Assembly: GCA_964599775.1 (NCBI GenBank)
Contig: CAZRGZ010000004.1
Coordinates: 7,373-71,372, forward strand
From: an uncultured Candidatus Saccharibacteria bacterium
Lineage (GTDB): Bacteria; Patescibacteriota; Saccharimonadia; Saccharimonadales; Saccharimonadaceae
Direction of reading: 5' to 3'
Length of the DNA stretch: 64,000 bases
The notes below the pieces were generated by a model that saw only the letters and a program-made list of their open reading frames with translations, ran no database searches and was not told the origin of the DNA. Made by a program: the position numbers and the translations under genes. This document shows positions 9,466 through 57,540 of the stretch, in pieces (position 1 is the first letter of the stretch; every line of letters starts with the position of its first letter).

Positions 9466-9584
9466 TGCCGCTCGCTTTCTGCCGCGTGAAATTAGTTATG
9501 CTTATAATGTAATGTAGTTTGGGTGATTTTGCAAATAAAAGTAACCGGATTATCCGGTTACTTTTAGATATGTATTTTTAGTGG

Positions 9585-10028
9585 CTAAGCAGCGGTCGGA
9601 TCTTCACCGAGGATGCGTTCCTCTACTGCGTCAGTTTGCTCCGAAGTCCATGTAAGACGTACACCGTCGGCATCGCCTTCACACCCATAAACTTCTGGCC
9701 CCGTTGACTCCCCTGCTGCATTAAAGGATGATCCACTTCCTGGAGGAATTAAAGCGTCAGGATCTATATTCTCAATTGTCCCACCGGCTATCTGCGCACA
9801 GGTAGGGTAGGTGCCGTCGTGTGTAGTAGCATATGCTTGAACGGCAACTGCAATATTACGAATATCACTCTGTCGTTCAGAATCACGTGCACGTTGTTGG
9901 ATGCCTACGTACGCTGCGATAACTAACGCTGCCAAAATAGCAATCACAATAATCACGATCAAGAGCTCGACAATCGTGAAGCCTTCTTCGCGGCGGCGCA
10001 TTTGTTTCAATTTGTTGGTAAGAGTCAT
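9585..10028 (-). CDS. Type IV pilin-like protein
   Basis: Prepilin motif G-FTIVELLIVIIVIAILAALV after a short basic leader (MTLTNKLKQMRRREE). Start trimmed to the ATG with an AGGGGG SD. Ends with TAG. Confidence 0.85.
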   Translation of the reverse strand: MTLTNKLKQMRRREEGFTIVELLIVIIVIAILAALVIAAYVGIQQRARDSERQSDIRNIAVAVQAYATTHDGTYPTCAQIAGGTIENIDPDALIPPGSGSSFNAAGESTGPEVYGCEGDADGVRLTWTSEQTDAVEERILGEDPTAA

Positions 10029-10111
10029 TTCTCTTATGCCCCCTAATTTTATGTTACTTATGTTTATTAATATATCGTCTATTGCCTTAAAACGCAAGCT
10101 TTTTACTACAT

Positions 10112-10900
10112 TTAGTTGAGCTTGCTAACGCGTAGGGTGCGGGTGAGCTCGAAGGGCAGGCCCGAGAGGCGGCGGTCTATGCCTATTTCTACCTCTATGG
10201 TTTTGGCGGCGTTGAGGGCGTTGGGGTCGGTGGTGTTGTATACGTCTAGCACGTTTTGGGTTTCGGCGCTAGCATAGTAGCGCACATCGAAGGTGTTAAT
10301 GTCGGCTATCATGAGCTCGTCGTTGGTTTGGCATATGGCGTTGGGGCTGGCGAGGTCGGGCGGGCAGCTTTGGCGCTGGAACTGGGGCGCGCAGGTGGTT
10401 TGGTCGGTGCGGGTGAGCGTGCGGCGGTAAAGGTCATTGTCGCGCAAGAAGTAAATAATGTTGGTGGTAAGCGCCGGGTTGCTTAAAATAGTGTCGGCGG
10501 CGCAGCCGTTTTCATTTATGTATACCGGCTGTTTGTTGGAATGCCGTGGGCTTAGTGTGGTGGCGTAGGCGCGCAAAATGAGCTCACGGTCGCCGGCGCC
10601 GTCGCCTTTGTAGTACCAGCTGTCGCCAGCGCTATCGGGGCCGTAAGGGTCAGTGAAGGCGGGGTCGGTGGTGATGAGGAACTGTGAGGTGAGCTTGACG
10701 TCGTCTTCGATAGTATTGAGCGCGGCATTGGCCTCGTGTACAATAGCGACTTCTTGCCGGGCGGCCAGATTGTTACCCATAAGATTGATAAGCAAGGCCA
10801 GAATACCGGTAATCGCGATGATAACAATTGGCGCGACTACGGCGATTTCTATGAGGGTAAAGCCAGCCTGTGCTTCTTGCCTAGTTAACGTACGTGGCAT
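10112..10900 (-). CDS. Pilin-like / minor pilin protein
   Basis: N-terminal AQAGFTLIEIAVVAPIVIIAITGILALL cleavage/methylation motif, 262 aa. Confidence 0.75.
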   Translation of the reverse strand: MPRTLTRQEAQAGFTLIEIAVVAPIVIIAITGILALLINLMGNNLAARQEVAIVHEANAALNTIEDDVKLTSQFLITTDPAFTDPYGPDSAGDSWYYKGDGAGDRELILRAYATTLSPRHSNKQPVYINENGCAADTILSNPALTTNIIYFLRDNDLYRRTLTRTDQTTCAPQFQRQSCPPDLASPNAICQTNDELMIADINTFDVRYYASAETQNVLDVYNTTDPNALNAAKTIEVEIGIDRRLSGLPFELTRTLRVSKLN

Positions 10901-13598: not shown

Positions 13599-13638
13599 CC
13601 ATATTAAAACCCCTCCTTAAGGAGGGGTTTTAATATGG
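13599..13638 (-). terminator. Perfect 18-bp hairpin after tRNA-Arg(TCG)
   Basis: CCATATTAAAACCCCTCC-TTAA-GGAGGGGTTTTAATATGG, overlapping the tRNA CCA end. Confidence 0.7.
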
Positions 13639-13712
13639 TACACCCGGTAGGATTCGAACCTACGACACCTGGTTCCGAAGACCAGTGCTCTAATCCACTG
13701 AGCTACGGGTGC
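13636..13712 (-). tRNA. tRNA-Arg (anticodon TCG)
   Basis: Minus strand: GCACCCG acceptor, anticodon stem-loop CTGGT-CTTCGGA-ACCAG, T-arm GTAGGTTCGAATCCTAC, encoded CCA, 77 nt. Confidence 0.9.
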
Positions 13713-14854: not shown

Positions 14855-14880
14855 CATAATTCTGCTATACTAGCATCTGT

Positions 14881-14901
14881 TATGGGCCAGTAGCTCAGCT
14901 G
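14881..14901 (+). repeat. Partial copy of the tRNA-Lys 5' end
   Basis: TATGGGCCAGTAGCTCAGCTG is identical to 15007-15027 (3 nt of upstream flank plus the first 18 nt of tRNA-Lys). Confidence 0.85.
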
Positions 14902-15009
14902 CCCTGTCCGAGGCATTTATGCCGAGTAGTGATTAAAACGCACCAGGTGCTCTCACCGCTCGACGTCGTCCCCGGATTAAATGAAAGAGCTTGTACATTA
15001 CGTATTTAT

Positions 15010-15086
15010 GGGCCAGTAGCTCAGCTGGTTAGAGCACCTGCCTCTTAAGCAGGGTGTCGTGGGTTCGAGTCCCACCTGGCCCTCCA
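15010..15086 (+). tRNA. tRNA-Lys (anticodon CTT)
   Basis: GGGCCAG acceptor, anticodon stem-loop CCTGC-CTCTTAA-GCAGG, T-arm GTGGGTTCGAGTCCCAC, encoded CCA. Confidence 0.9.
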
Positions 15087-53615: not shown

Positions 53616-53690
53616 GGCCCCATCGTCTAGTGGTTAGGACACCAGGTTTTCATCCTGGCAACCGGAGTTCGATTCTCCGTGGGGTCACCA
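53616..53690 (+). tRNA. tRNA-Glu (anticodon TTC)
   Basis: GGCCCCA acceptor, anticodon stem-loop CCAGG-TTTTCAT-CCTGG, T-arm CGGAGTTCGATTCTCCG, encoded CCA. Confidence 0.9.
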
Positions 53691-53730
53691 AAGTAAAATA
53701 CCCATCTCATGATGGGTATTTTACTTTGGT
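53685..53730 (+). repeat. Direct repeat copy 1 (tRNA-Glu 3' end plus hairpin)
   Basis: TCACCAAAGTAAAATACCCATCTCATGATGGGTATTTTACTTTGGT is identical to 55351-55396. It contains a 15-bp hairpin that also serves as the tRNA terminator. Confidence 0.9.
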
Positions 53731-53837
53731 GATTCTTCCTAGTGAATTGAACTTCGATTGCGCGACGCTCTAGCGTCGCAAGTAACCGTGGTTTGTTAAT
53801 TAAAGCGATTGCGCAAATCTGATATTAAACTTTAGAA

Positions 53838-54410
53838 CTAGTCCTTATGGCAGATAAAGACCACCATACCACCCTCTTCAACAATGGCAACATCGACAAA
53901 TCTGGCACGGAGTTCATGTGACGTTGCTTCAAAGTCCACTGAGATCGGTCTCGCCTCATCAGCTCGCCGATGCACAGGAGTAATGACCACGAAAGTACCT
54001 TTTGGAGATAGAAGCTTATCGACACGATCTAAAAACACTGCGCGATCTTTAATAAATGCGTACACTAGCTTGCATGTAATAAGAGAGAAGGGCTGTATTG
54101 GCAGCTTGTCGATATCATCCTTCTCGATATCAAATTGAAGATAGTGCAACTCGTCGCTCCTCGTAGTAAGCGATTTTGCCAATCGTATAGCACTAAGTGA
54201 AATATCCACACCAACACACTCATAGCCACGATGATTAAGTTCCCTCGTGAGTTGACCGGTGCCACAACCGATATCTAAACAAATCTTCTTCAAGCTTTGA
54301 TCAGTATGTTCGAGCATAGTAGTTAACAAGCGGGAAGGGATCAGACGAAAATCTGCGTTTTTATCGTAGTAGGCGCTCCAGTGTTTGTCTAAATCGGTTT
54401 GCATATACAT
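53838..54410 (-). CDS. Class I SAM-dependent methyltransferase
   Basis: Motif I LDIGCGTGQLTRELNHRG, then CVGVDIS, 190 aa. Confidence 0.8.
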   Translation of the reverse strand: MYMQTDLDKHWSAYYDKNADFRLIPSRLLTTMLEHTDQSLKKICLDIGCGTGQLTRELNHRGYECVGVDISLSAIRLAKSLTTRSDELHYLQFDIEKDDIDKLPIQPFSLITCKLVYAFIKDRAVFLDRVDKLLSPKGTFVVITPVHRRADEARPISVDFEATSHELRARFVDVAIVEEGGMVVFICHKD

Positions 54411-54529
54411 TGATAATACTATAAATCCTCTAAAAAAGCGGAAAGCCCCCGTCCGCCACCACCCTGAGGGCAGCGGCGAACGGGGGTGACGCCTGTTCCG
54501 CCGATCTTCAGCGGTTCAGAACATCAGTG

Positions 54530-55036
54530 TCAGTGCTGGCAGCCGGAGTCGCCGTCCCCGCCACCGCCGCTGCACGAGTCGCCGCTGCAGTAGCCGCTGC
54601 AGTAGCTGCTGCAGTCGTGGCCCGTGTTGGCCCACAGCGGCTCGTCGACGATGAAGCCGTACTGCTTGAGCGCGGCGACCGTCCGCGCGATGTTGCCGGT
54701 GCCGTAGTCCACACCCTCCTCGTCGGAGGGCGCGTGGTGGATGAACTGACCCCCCACCCTCTGACAGAACGCCGCGTACTCGCGGGTGTAGAGGATGAAG
54801 GTGTGCCAGCCGATGTCCACCAGCGGCGAGGGCGAGTAGTGGCCGTTCGGGACCTTGGCGCAGAGCGCCAGGAAGCCGAGGGCCTGGTCCATGACGCGCT
54901 CGGCGAGCGGGCGCTCCATGTTCTCGTCCTTGACGATCCGGTTGACGAGCCTGTTCCACAGGCTCTCGTCGATGAGGCCCTTGTTGGTCGGCGCGGTGCC
55001 GACCGGGGTCTCGACGACGGTGGTTCCCACGGTCAT
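54530..55036 (-). CDS. High-GC islet F: GRDP/DUF1399-like protein (tentative) with Cys/Gly/Ser-rich tail
   Basis: Start trimmed to MTVGTTVV with a GAAGGGA SD. VDIGWHTFILYTREYAAFC resembles the glycine-rich-domain-protein-like core. The tail reads GHDCSSYCSGYCSGDSCSGGGGDGDSGCQH. Very high GC3. Confidence 0.5.
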   Translation of the reverse strand: MTVGTTVVETPVGTAPTNKGLIDESLWNRLVNRIVKDENMERPLAERVMDQALGFLALCAKVPNGHYSPSPLVDIGWHTFILYTREYAAFCQRVGGQFIHHAPSDEEGVDYGTGNIARTVAALKQYGFIVDEPLWANTGHDCSSYCSGYCSGDSCSGGGGDGDSGCQH

Positions 55037-55350
55037 TACCGTGTTCCCTTCACTTGACACAGACACACTTTTGTATGTCTAATAAATATTTTATAACTCA
55101 AATTACCTCAATTGCATATGGTGGAATTTACAACGAATGCAACATCGAGAGTCTATAACCCTCAATACGCATTAAAAGACGACACTCCTGTGAGTCACGA
55201 CGAATGGAGACGGCATAATTGCTACTGGGTATCAGCATGCATAGGGTCAGCCAAGTCTCTGAATAGTTTCGCTATACACCAGCTCTTCTAAGCTTCCGCT
55301 TAATCGACATAGAGCTAGGTGTAAAGTGTTCCAGTTTTTACCCCGCAGGC

Positions 55351-55396
55351 TCACCAAAGTAAAATACCCATCTCATGATGGGTATTTTACTTTGGT
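55351..55396 (+). repeat. Direct repeat copy 2
   Basis: Perfect 46-nt copy of 53685-53730. About 33 further nt downstream are roughly 70% similar to the sequence after copy 1. Confidence 0.9.
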
Positions 55397-55535
55397 TGTC
55401 TTCGTGGAGTTGAACTCCGGTTGCGCTGTAAAGTGGGCTGAGGTCATAATGGGTACTCATCTTCTTATTGTAGCAATAAGAGCTTATTCCGCCCCTTGTA
55501 TAATAATTACTAAATTATGTTATAATTTCCTAATT

Positions 55536-56321
55536 ATGGCAAGTCTATATTCTCCCGAAGATATTGCTGGCTTTCTTTTAGAAGAAAAGCTGGCTATTCA
55601 CGGGGTTTCGCCAGAAGTTTATACTCAGAACTTGCTGCTTGTGCAGGAGCTTGGAAAGGCTGCTACTGCTTCCTCAGATGCCTTACTTGCAGTACAGGTA
55701 ATTGGTAGTAGGGGTAATGGTACAAGCGGTCTTGAATCAGACCTTGACTTAGTGGCCGTAACTTTTGATGCTGATACGGCTGACGAAGATAGAGCTCGTC
55801 TTGCAGAGGCAGCCGAAGGTCTGGGCATCTCTACTGATACTGGTCTTGCAGCTCTTGCGAATGGAGTACACGACACAATACCAGCAGAAGGGCCTGACTT
55901 TATTTACTGGATTGACACCGAAACTCATAAAGCAAGTAGCTTATTTGAGAAGGGTATATATGCTTCGCCTAATCAACGGTTAGGGCAATTAGCGGTTACG
56001 AGTATGCTTGCTAGTTGTATGTCAGAAAGTATGGCTCAAGACCAGTGGAGTGATATCAGGAAAAGCCACGCATATACTTATCTAGGCGATTTGGGAAGAA
56101 TGCAAGAAAAACTAGTAGAAAGACTAGGGAGTGAGCAAGAAAAAGCTATTATGAAGGCGATTTCTAAGGATTTAATGCGTCAAAGACGTACGAAATACGC
56201 TATACCTAAAGATATGAGAGCATATCACGCTAAATTGGAAAATTGGGTTAAAAGAAACAAGGCTCAAGTGAAGAAGCTTTCTGGCTACGAACTCTATCAA
56301 GATGTTTTAAGTGAATTATAG
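55536..56321 (+). CDS. Nucleotidyltransferase-fold protein (pol-beta superfamily)
   Basis: GSRGNGTSGLESDLDLVAV (G-S-x9-13-D-x-D). Start trimmed to MASLYSPED. TATAAT at 55521-55526, only 9 nt upstream of the ATG, suggests a near-leaderless transcript. Confidence 0.6.
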   Translation: MASLYSPEDIAGFLLEEKLAIHGVSPEVYTQNLLLVQELGKAATASSDALLAVQVIGSRGNGTSGLESDLDLVAVTFDADTADEDRARLAEAAEGLGISTDTGLAALANGVHDTIPAEGPDFIYWIDTETHKASSLFEKGIYASPNQRLGQLAVTSMLASCMSESMAQDQWSDIRKSHAYTYLGDLGRMQEKLVERLGSEQEKAIMKAISKDLMRQRRTKYAIPKDMRAYHAKLENWVKRNKAQVKKLSGYELYQDVLSEL

Positions 56322-56703: not shown

Positions 56704-57330
56704 ATGGCACAGAAGTTGGTGGTTGGCTGGGTCGACAAGTTCTTCCCCGAGCGCGGATTCGGATTCGTGTCCACCTCCGAAGGGGATGTGTTCATCCACG
56801 TCGACAGATGCCGCGAATTCACCGGCACGCCAGAGAAGCCCGGCATCGGAAAAACCCACCTCGGTGAGGACTGGGTTAGCAAGAACCTCATCCCCGCCCG
56901 GGGGCATGGAGGGCGCCGGCACGACTACTCCTACGTAGTCATGAAGGTCGTCCCCGGTCAAAAAGGGCCGCGCGCTGCGGTCTGGGCGGTGATCCCCCGC
57001 CGTAGGACGGTCGAGGACATCATGACGTACGGCGGCCTCGACAGCTACCTCGGCAAGGGGGTCGCTGTGCTGGCCGACAAGCCGTCCTCGCCCGAGGATG
57101 TGTGGGGCGCGCTCGCGGAGTGGTCGCTGCTCGAGGACTGCCTCACGCTCGTGCTCGAAGAGCCGAGGAAGGTGGGTAATGTTCGTGTGAAAGGCCCCAT
57201 AACACGGGTAATCAACTTCACGAGCATGGGGGTCCGCGAGGACTGCCCCGAACGCCTCGAACTCCTGTTCCGCCGGGAGGACGCGCCGTCGCTGAAGGTG
57301 GTCCTCTGGCGGCGGGAGCCGCGCAGCTGA
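56704..57330 (+). CDS. High-GC islet G: cold-shock-domain-like N-terminus fused to an unknown 140-aa region
   Basis: VGWVDKFFPERGFGFVSTSEGDVFIHV resembles the CSD RNP motifs. AAGGAG SD and AT-rich TAGTATAAT directly upstream. The GC jump starts at the ATG. Confidence 0.6.
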   Translation: MAQKLVVGWVDKFFPERGFGFVSTSEGDVFIHVDRCREFTGTPEKPGIGKTHLGEDWVSKNLIPARGHGGRRHDYSYVVMKVVPGQKGPRAAVWAVIPRRRTVEDIMTYGGLDSYLGKGVAVLADKPSSPEDVWGALAEWSLLEDCLTLVLEEPRKVGNVRVKGPITRVINFTSMGVREDCPERLELLFRREDAPSLKVVLWRREPRS

Positions 57331-57341
57331 TACGGCTGCCA

Positions 57342-57375
57342 CCGGAGCCTCAGAGCATCGACTCTGGGGCTCCGG
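57342..57375 (+). terminator. GC-rich hairpin after islet G
   Basis: CCGGAGCCTCAGAG-CATCGA-CTCTGGGGCTCCGG, 14-bp stem with one G-U pair. Confidence 0.7.
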
Positions 57376-57540
57376 CCTCAGACTAAGCGCTTACGATGTG
57401 AGCTTTTAGTCTAAGGATTGACGAGTGCAATTTTCGTGCATGCGGCGCCTACAATATACGTTGTGAAGTCATTCACATTATGCGGTATAGACAAACTTAC
57501 TAACTATGTATAATAGAACTATAAGCATAAGGGGAATACG

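Follow-up and report, generated by a model that had tools for sequence, protein, structure and literature searches.

A 1,666-bp segment of the genome of an uncultured Candidatus Saccharibacteria bacterium appears to be a small, non-autonomous cassette that was inserted directly behind a tRNA-Glu(UUC) gene. The segment lies in a stretch of 64,000 nucleotides (assembly GCA_964599775.1, contig CAZRGZ010000004.1, positions 7,373 to 71,372; here called the window, with all coordinates counted from its first nucleotide), and it carries two genes of very different base composition between identical 46-bp direct repeats, the first of which begins in the 3' end of the tRNA gene. We favor, with moderate confidence, the view that this unit entered the tRNA-Glu(UUC) trailer by a single crossover, and the repeat is most readily understood as the trace that recombination left around imported cargo. 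An initial annotation, made from the letters of the window alone, had taken the repeats for an attL/attR pair and for the route by which a high-GC islet arrived. Here, we consider the repeat, its cargo, and the occupants of the same site in related genomes, and we weigh the alternatives where the evidence bears on them.

The repeat and its edges

The 46-mer TCACCAAAGTAAAATACCCATCTCATGATGGGTATTTTACTTTGGT is present in exactly two copies in the 64-kb window, on the same strand, at 53685-53730 and 55351-55396 and thus 1666 bp apart, as the initial annotation had recorded. No further copy was found in the window even when up to three mismatches were allowed, and a chance match is not expected, since none of 100 shuffled sequences contained one. 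Copy 1, the attL-like copy (53685-53730, plus strand), begins within an intact tRNA-Glu(UUC) gene at 53616-53690 on the plus strand, recognized both by ARAGORN and by the Rfam tRNA model (62.5 bits). The first 6 nt of the repeat, TCACCA, are the 3' end of this tRNA, with its discriminator and CCA, and the other 40 nt belong to the trailer with its terminator hairpin. The remainder after TCACCA makes up a perfect hairpin with the loop TCAT, its stem being 22 bp long in copy 1 (53685-53706 paired with 53711-53732) and 20 bp in copy 2. Copy 2, the attR-like copy (55351-55396, plus strand), is an orphan: a CCA-hairpin with no tRNA attached, located between divergent genes.

The two sides of the repeat behave differently when the copies are compared. 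To the right, 24 of 35 positions are equal (69%), a score reached by none of 1000 shuffles, in agreement with the roughly 70% similarity over about 33 nt noticed at first. To the left, only 11 of 26 positions are equal (42%), and 433 of 1000 shuffles did as well, so that the left flanks show no significant relationship. The identity profile accordingly has a sharp left edge at the 46/46 block and a diverged but related stretch to the right of it. A leftward extension of the repeat into the T-arm of the tRNA (54 nt, 94%) was considered and rejected; it rests on five of eight bases in a flank that is not significant. There are no terminal inverted repeats inside the direct repeats.

Both right flanks resemble the continuation of a tRNA-Glu trailer. 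That of copy 1 (53733-53779) contains a decayed inverted T-arm of tRNA-Glu (15 of 18 positions) and a small GC hairpin at 53762-53779, and that of copy 2 (55397-55454) contains an inverted pseudo T-arm of tRNA-Glu at 55407-55424 (16 of 18 positions). Because both flanks carry this inverted pseudo T-arm, two different trailer alleles seem to have been brought together, and each of the two copies is the start of a complete trailer of the tRNA-Glu type, the two trailers being different alleles. The pseudo T-arm does not tell which flank is native, the two scores being too close to decide. The flank of copy 2 is also variable between strains, with about 40 nt directly to its right replaced in a contig of the same species (L001; handles of this form denote sequences from other genomes and samples). 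The attL-type junction, on the copy 1 side, can be written as tRNA-hairpin-GATTCTTCC and the attR-type junction, on the copy 2 side, as CCGCAGGC-hairpin-TGTCTTCG.

How could such an arrangement arise? In the favored scheme, a circular DNA that carried a pre-built operon, consisting of a gene of the PF27765 family and a methyltransferase gene, together with a copy of the tRNA-Glu trailer, would have undergone one reciprocal crossover with the chromosome somewhere within the common 46 bp of discriminator, CCA and terminator hairpin. The tRNA would have been kept intact while gaining the cassette-borne right flank (53733-53779), and the second hairpin and the flank belonging to it would have come to lie 1.67 kb downstream, ahead of a nucleotidyltransferase gene. 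The catalyst would have been either a site-specific recombinase acting in trans or RecA acting on the 46 bp of identity; the two seem about equally likely, and site-specific recombination yields the same product as a RecA-dependent single crossover between similar trailers. A recombinase in trans is plausible because a serine-recombinase element occupies the same slot in relatives and integrases lie beside the operon in another contig (see below). A single crossover predicts an intact tRNA, a direct and identical block, unrelated sequence to the left of copy 2, and two related right flanks. Uniform decay of an old duplication does not fit the profile, because 46/46 identity directly adjoins about 31% divergence.

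The hairpin as a tRNA terminator

Five of the six tRNA genes in the window are followed directly on the 3' side by a hairpin of about 15-22 bp: those for His (934-1010), Gly (1110-1184), Arg-tcg (13636-13712), Lys (15010-15086) and Glu (53616-53690). These trailers share one design, with an A-rich 5' arm that begins in the discriminator or the CCA and a T-rich 3' arm. A CCA-anchored hairpin is thus the usual tRNA terminator of this lineage. Copy 1 has the properties of an intrinsic terminator, namely a stable hairpin with a T-rich 3' side directly after a gene, and it probably terminates both tRNA-Glu on the plus strand and the cassette operon on the minus strand. Copy 2 has the same terminator sequence, but no gene is directed into it; since it lacks a tRNA and sits between divergent genes, it has no obvious role in termination. 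Perfect hairpins with a stem of at least 13 bp number five in the 64 kb, and copy 2 is the only CCA-built one among them without a tRNA.

Stem k-mers of 10-12 nt are confined to the two hairpins within the window and are found once per related locus elsewhere. An uptake sequence or a dispersed repeat like the repetitive extragenic palindromes (REP) and bacterial interspersed mosaic elements (BIME) can be ruled out, because these k-mers are not over-represented. A search of the region for structured RNA families with Rfam gave just the tRNA and spurious microRNA-like hairpin matches.

Three of the tRNA genes are followed, beyond the trailer hairpin, by a decayed and inverted version of their own T-arm, matching at 19 of 23 positions for Gly, 11 of 13 for Lys and 15 of 18 for Glu; shuffles equalled these scores in 0, 16 and 2 cases per 1000, respectively. 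For these three tRNAs, the 3' half of the gene is thus one arm of a long decayed palindrome. In a read-through transcript, the T-arm of tRNA-Glu is predicted to pair with its inverted copy (-87 kcal/mol, z = -10).

Another tRNA gene in the window, tRNA-Lys(ctt), has a repeat of a different kind. A perfect 22-nt direct repeat, TTATGGGCCAGTAGCTCAGCTG, is found there at 14880-14901 and 15006-15027, 126 nt apart; it consists of 4 nt of leader and the first 18 nt of the tRNA, and the copies enclose 104 nt of unrelated sequence. The displaced 5' fragment of tRNA-Lys is the second duplication of a tRNA end in the window.

Perhaps, then, no integration took place, and the tRNA-Glu trailer was simply duplicated on the spot, by tandem duplication of the tRNA or by slippage at the palindrome, with the genes gained later and the hairpins kept alike by gene conversion or selection. 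Such an origin draws on the fact that the hairpin is of the normal tRNA terminator design (five of six tRNAs), on the tendency of long perfect palindromes to rearrange, on the resemblance of both right flanks to tRNA-Glu trailers, on the TCAT loop of both copies, which fits conversion, and on the partial duplication of tRNA-Lys at its 5' end. It is hard to reconcile with the abrupt loss of identity at the edges of the 100% block, down to 42% on its left and 69% on its right, with a copy 2 that has no gene to terminate and no remnant of a tRNA body ahead of it, and with the mobility of the operon elsewhere and the recombinase element in the slot of relatives. We consider local duplication unlikely.

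The cargo operon

Two genes lie between the copies, both on the minus strand. Gene 1 of the operon (54530-55036) encodes a PF27765 (UCP032817-like) protein of 168 amino acids, a "glycine-rich domain-containing protein" with a Cys/Gly-rich C-terminal tail; its GC content is 0.68, and its GC content at third codon positions (GC3) is 0.96. Its start is taken as the ATG at 55036, with GAAGGGAA ahead of it. Named homologs come from Streptomyces, Mycobacterium and several metagenome-assembled Saccharimonadales. The protein gave no match in the local copy of Pfam, in NCBIfam or in PADLOC, and no convincing match in PDB (E = 0.15). Gene 2 (53838-54410) encodes a class I S-adenosylmethionine (SAM)-dependent methyltransferase of 190 amino acids, with a GC content of 0.44 and a GC3 of 0.435. 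It matches the Pfam families Methyltransf_11, 25 and 31 (Methyltransf_11, E = 8e-17); matches in NCBIfam are generic only, and a match to "mad2" in PADLOC is limited to the methyltransferase domain. The exact protein has no record, whichever candidate start codon is assumed. The cargo is therefore as initially described, a SAM methyltransferase and an open reading frame (ORF) of 68% GC, the latter having been called islet F.

The high-GC block extends from about 54440 to 55040, roughly 700 and 300 nt inside the two repeats. It includes a GC-rich hairpin, read from the sequence on the minus strand at 54446-54487, directly downstream of the high-GC ORF; the hairpin is reproduced with one single-nucleotide difference in a contig from another sample (L005), and a terminator-like site is listed on the minus strand at 54451-54439. 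On the other side of the ORF, a low-GC 5' region (55037-55350, minus strand) forms the promoter side of the operon, reaches as far as the left edge of copy 2, and is not tRNA-like. About 100 nt of it, next to the PF27765 ORF, are conserved with the L018 contig described below (homology to 55134).

Neither cassette gene is a transposase. Pfam searches found no recombinase in the cassette or the neighboring genes, and tblastn with a large serine recombinase, a tyrosine integrase and a small serine recombinase found none anywhere in the 64-kb window, which bears out the earlier statement that no integrase or excisionase is present nearby.

The same operon in other genomes

The PF27765 gene is followed, in every context fetched, by a methyltransferase gene of about 185-190 codons on the same strand. 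The PF27765 proteins are 79% identical to that of the window in L016/L017, 75% in L018, 78% in L030 (an 899-kb contig) and 72% in L031 (NCBI Saccharimonadales assembly GCA_036378955.1), and the operons are found at 10001-11144 of L016, 6097-7265 of L018, 8001-9126 of L030 and 8001-9138 of L031. The neighbors of the operon differ in each of these, giving at least four contexts other than that of the window: the operon moves. The L018 contig also bears a tyrosine integrase, an HTH_17 protein and a serine recombinase. No direct repeats were found around the operon in L016, L018, L030 or L031.

The contrast in base composition travels with the pair. In five genomes, GC3 ranges from 0.74 to 0.98 for the PF27765 gene vs. 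0.34 to 0.63 for the methyltransferase gene. Since the same high-GC/low-GC pair is present in other Saccharibacteria, the chimeric operon is older than its insertion at tRNA-Glu, and it was pre-assembled and mobile before it reached this site. This result does not sit with the idea that the repeat marks the arrival route of the high-GC islet: the high-GC block lies well inside the repeats and the pairing is older, and so the repeat was not the entry route of the actinobacterial-like DNA. In a rough neighbor-joining tree of PF27765 proteins, drawn without support values, Saccharimonadales fall into several clades, some of them beside Streptomyces.

The nucleotide comparison of the window with L016 is lopsided, with 84.5% identity across the PF27765 ORF, only 99 nt of the methyltransferase gene alignable, at 72%, and flanks that do not align. 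That the PF27765 ORF is far better conserved as DNA than its partner or flanks, with the GC contrast kept, fits no explanation tested. Upstream of the L016 operon, moreover, two hairpin-containing repeats of 48 nt (9508-9555 and 9693-9740) are 75% identical and 185 nt apart, and the stretch between them has a T-loop-like motif, GGTTCAAGTCC, in which neither ARAGORN nor Rfam found a gene.

Occupants of the same slot in relatives

The slot behind tRNA-Glu is bounded on the right by a gene for a nucleotidyltransferase-like protein (55536-56321, plus strand), whose orthologs are 90% identical in L024 and L025 and 92% identical in L029. All three of these relatives have the slot occupied, by an element different from that in the window. 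L029, which starts at the tRNA-Glu 3' end, contains an intact large serine recombinase of at least 539 amino acids that has both a Resolvase and a Recombinase domain and finds its best named matches in CcrB and XisF; a full DUF5681 gene comes next, ahead of the nucleotidyltransferase gene. The order in L024 is tRNA-Glu(ttc), a CCA-hairpin of another sequence, a recombinase remnant, a truncated DUF5681 gene that has lost half its length, and the nucleotidyltransferase gene. The remnant (425 amino acids, minus strand) retains the Recombinase domain and zinc-ribbon-like Cys motifs and has lost the catalytic domain; it is 92% identical to residues 129-537 of the L029 enzyme. This serine-recombinase/DUF5681 mini-element lies directly after tRNA-Glu, at 1-2465 of L029 and 8449-9913 of L024, and its recombinase ORF extends, in antisense, across the terminator into the tRNA. 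As a recombination hotspot, the slot occurs in several states; those seen in close relatives are an intact serine-recombinase mini-element, a decayed one, and the recombinase-less cassette with 46-bp repeats.

Homology between the window and L024/L029 ends 2 nt after the CCA (53692) and is clear again from 55492, with indels from about 55455. The intergenic stretch at 55455-55535 is common to L024 and L029 and leads into the nucleotidyltransferase promoter. Within it, 55455-55481 aligns with the region around the DUF5681 start codon of both relatives, and these roughly 25 nt are probably the scar of a lost serine-recombinase element. A further candidate remnant, of the recombinase 3' end to the right of copy 2, was set aside: the 16-mer CTGTAAAGTGGGCTGA, which has a match in L024, scored within the range of shuffles and is weak evidence only.

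In a different account, natural transformation brought in the whole block, with both hairpins, from a related Saccharibacterium; a resident serine-recombinase element would have been replaced through homologous recombination at tRNA-Glu, and the repeat would have arisen in the donor. Saccharibacteria are naturally competent, the segment that differs from L024/L029 runs from 2 nt after the CCA to about 55455 and so includes both hairpins, and the 3' 40-mer of tRNA-Glu, the same in many candidate-phyla genomes, would be a good homology anchor. The probable DUF5681 start-codon scar also agrees with a replacement, but it amounts to about 25 nt, and the 16-mer that matches the recombinase 3' end is no better than shuffles. 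Block import shifts the origin of the repeat to another genome without explaining it. We regard this account as rather improbable.

Two observations concern the right boundary. A distant ortholog of the nucleotidyltransferase (64%) in L026/L027, at 9872-10846, lies directly downstream of tRNA-Pro(tgg), so that this gene is tRNA-adjacent in another lineage too. Past the nucleotidyltransferase gene of the window there is a second high-GC gene (56704-57330, 64% GC, in a block at about 56712-57431), encoding 208 amino acids with a weakly cold-shock-like N-terminus (Pfam CSD, E = 0.001); no direct repeat was found to flank it.

The same hairpin elsewhere

A scan of metagenomes that fixed the stem but allowed any loop returned five loci, all from other species and none with the loop TCAT; the species of the window was absent. 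The identical 20-bp stem is found directly after tRNA-Arg(gcg) in L019 (5637-5668) and L020 (2256-2287) and after tRNA-Glu(ctc) in L022 (5324-5355), and it follows tRNA-Glu 3' ends at the contig edges of L021 (37-68) and L023 (24-55). The 4-nt loops at these loci are ATTT (AAAT on the listed strand of L019), GATT, ATTC and TTCT. The trailer of tRNA-Glu(CUC) in L022 is 81% identical over 167 nt to the tRNA, hairpin and copy 1 flank of the window. Viral contigs yielded no copy of the hairpin and no relative of the serine recombinase.

Two of these loci have only part of a tRNA. In L023, only the last 18 nt of tRNA-Glu stand ahead of the hairpin, and the genes on the same side encode an Mrr endonuclease, an XRE regulator, a type IV secretion system coupling protein, a CHAP hydrolase and a VirB4-like ATPase. 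By analogy, L023 looks like an attR-like footprint comparable to copy 2. Type IV secretion genes are common in Saccharibacteria, and those of L023 need not belong to a conjugative element. In L021, 36 nt of the tRNA-Glu 3' end are followed by the same hairpin, a similar flank, and then the housekeeping gene for pyruvate kinase; this may be the unoccupied counterpart.

The geometry of the hairpin, with perfect palindromic arms of 20 bp around an asymmetric 4-nt spacer, suggests a bolder possibility. By analogy with the staphylococcal cassette chromosome (SCC) and integrons, the CCA-anchored hairpin might itself be a dedicated recombination site, at which Saccharibacteria swap small tRNA-trailer cassettes by means of serine recombinases like that of L029. 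If true, this would explain why one stem with different loops is found after Glu-UUC, Glu-CUC and Arg-GCG in different genomes, why inverted, decayed tRNA halves lie past the hairpin (integration at a palindrome could proceed in either orientation), and why strains differ in the flank beside the hairpin. Connected with this is the possibility that the PF27765 gene keeps its Streptomyces-like codons (GC3 up to 0.98) through repeated replacement from actinobacterial hosts. We hold the dedicated-site idea to be quite doubtful.

Assembly checks in other samples

Contigs of other samples break exactly at the edges of the repeat, as a true repeat predicts. Assuming that the Logan contigs were built with k = 31, L002 and L004 stop where the 31-mers specific to the tRNA side run out (window position 53714), and L001 begins with the first 31-mer that is found only to the right of copy 2 (55367). 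The repeat is thus not peculiar to one assembly. The GC mosaic is not a chimera either, because L005 spans both low-GC/high-GC junctions of the high-GC ORF and reproduces them at 99.8% identity. No short-k contig across the repeat was seen, and the integrated order rests on the window assembly alone.

It is in this light that an assembly ambiguity has to be considered, whereby the 46-bp repeat joined an empty site to a free 1.67-kb circle or to another locus, or joined sequences from a mixture of strains. The Logan contigs break at the repeat in every sample seen, and assemblies with k below 46 give the same graph either way. Yet the window assembly crosses both junctions, L005 confirms the interior of the cassette, and at least two other samples contain both left contexts together with both right ones; an excised circle would, moreover, itself support mobility. 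Such an ambiguity strikes us as very unlikely.

The case against insertion

Several observations weigh against insertion by a single crossover. The cassette and the 64-kb window hold no recombinase, and the recombinase element of L024 and L029 adjoins a different trailer hairpin, so that its enzyme need not recognize the 46-mer site. The duplicated part of the tRNA is 6 nt only, far below the usual displaced tRNA fragment. The hairpin being the tRNA terminator of the lineage, selection or gene conversion could possibly have preserved the identity of a duplicated terminator. The loop is TCAT in both copies but varies between genomes, which calls for a very close donor or for homogenization after insertion. 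The graphs of short-k assemblies would be the same for the integrated form as for an empty site plus a 1.67-kb circle.

The initial annotation had also proposed a search for the empty site, and none was found. Neither an empty site, an attP circle nor a presence/absence polymorphism turned up in one genome-collection scan and one metagenome scan. The former, made with the tRNA-Glu 3' 40-mer, gave ten loci, none of them syntenic and none with the hairpin, the species of the window again being absent; this 40-mer is identical across many candidate-phyla genomes. The metagenome scan, as noted, found other species only. The attL/attR interpretation has in part been strengthened, by the orphan status of copy 2, the mobile operon, the recombinase element in the relatives' slot and the analog in L023, and in part weakened, by the missing empty site and the 6 nt of tRNA.

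Comparison with known systems

Criteria for genomic islands at tRNA and tmRNA genes, of the Islander type, have been described (PMC4383910). The cassette behind tRNA-Glu resembles these islands in having an intact tRNA at one end, a direct repeat that begins in the tRNA 3' end at the other, and foreign, mobile cargo between, and in that a recombinase-bearing element uses the same tRNA slot in relatives. It differs from them in that the cassette has no integrase, repeats only 6 nt of tRNA (plus 40 nt of terminator), and is very small at 1.67 kb. In addition, where a tyrosine integrase would be usual, the enzyme in the relatives' slot is a large serine recombinase.

Another parallel may be found in elements that borrow their recombinase. 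The cis-mobilizable elements (CIMEs) of the ICESt1/ICESt3 family and the ccr-less SCC elements at rlmH are flanked by att sites, lack a recombinase, and are mobilized in trans. The cassette likewise has att-like direct repeats and no recombination module, its slot is also used by recombinase-bearing elements, and the best named matches of the relatives' recombinase are CcrB and XisF. Unlike in those systems, the relatives' recombinase element adjoins a different hairpin, and the cassette was not seen in tandem with an autonomous element. Campbell-type homologous integration gives the same topology, a duplicated block of identity around an insert with differing flanks, and requires a circular intermediate and RecA acting on just 46 bp of identity.

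Other comparisons can be dismissed. Integron cassettes are likewise small, comprise one or two genes and have a palindromic site at their boundary, but here there is no intI, attI or Pc, and the cassette has its own promoter region. Pairing in attC sites is imperfect, with bulged bases, whereas the hairpin of the repeat has a perfect stem of 20-22 bp. With no integrase homolog in the window and a perfect stem, an integron gene cassette is ruled out. An insertion sequence, a miniature inverted-repeat transposable element or another transposon is ruled out as well, there being no terminal inverted repeats, no transposase, and a repeat of 46 bp, which to our knowledge exceeds any target-site duplication.

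Implications

In mechanism, the locus is ordinary tRNA-linked island biology. Saccharibacteria are ultra-small epibionts of Actinobacteria with reduced genomes, and our full-text literature searches, which were not exhaustive, found no description of tRNA-linked integration in them; the locus is a concrete and testable case of probable tRNA-linked insertion in a little-studied bacterial group. Two features deserve attention, namely the occurrence of the same stem behind different tRNAs and the lasting Streptomyces-like codon usage of gene 1 beside a low-GC partner. At least one "high-GC islet" of this genome belongs to a conserved mobile operon that spreads among Saccharibacteria, rather than being the product of a single capture from a host at this locus.

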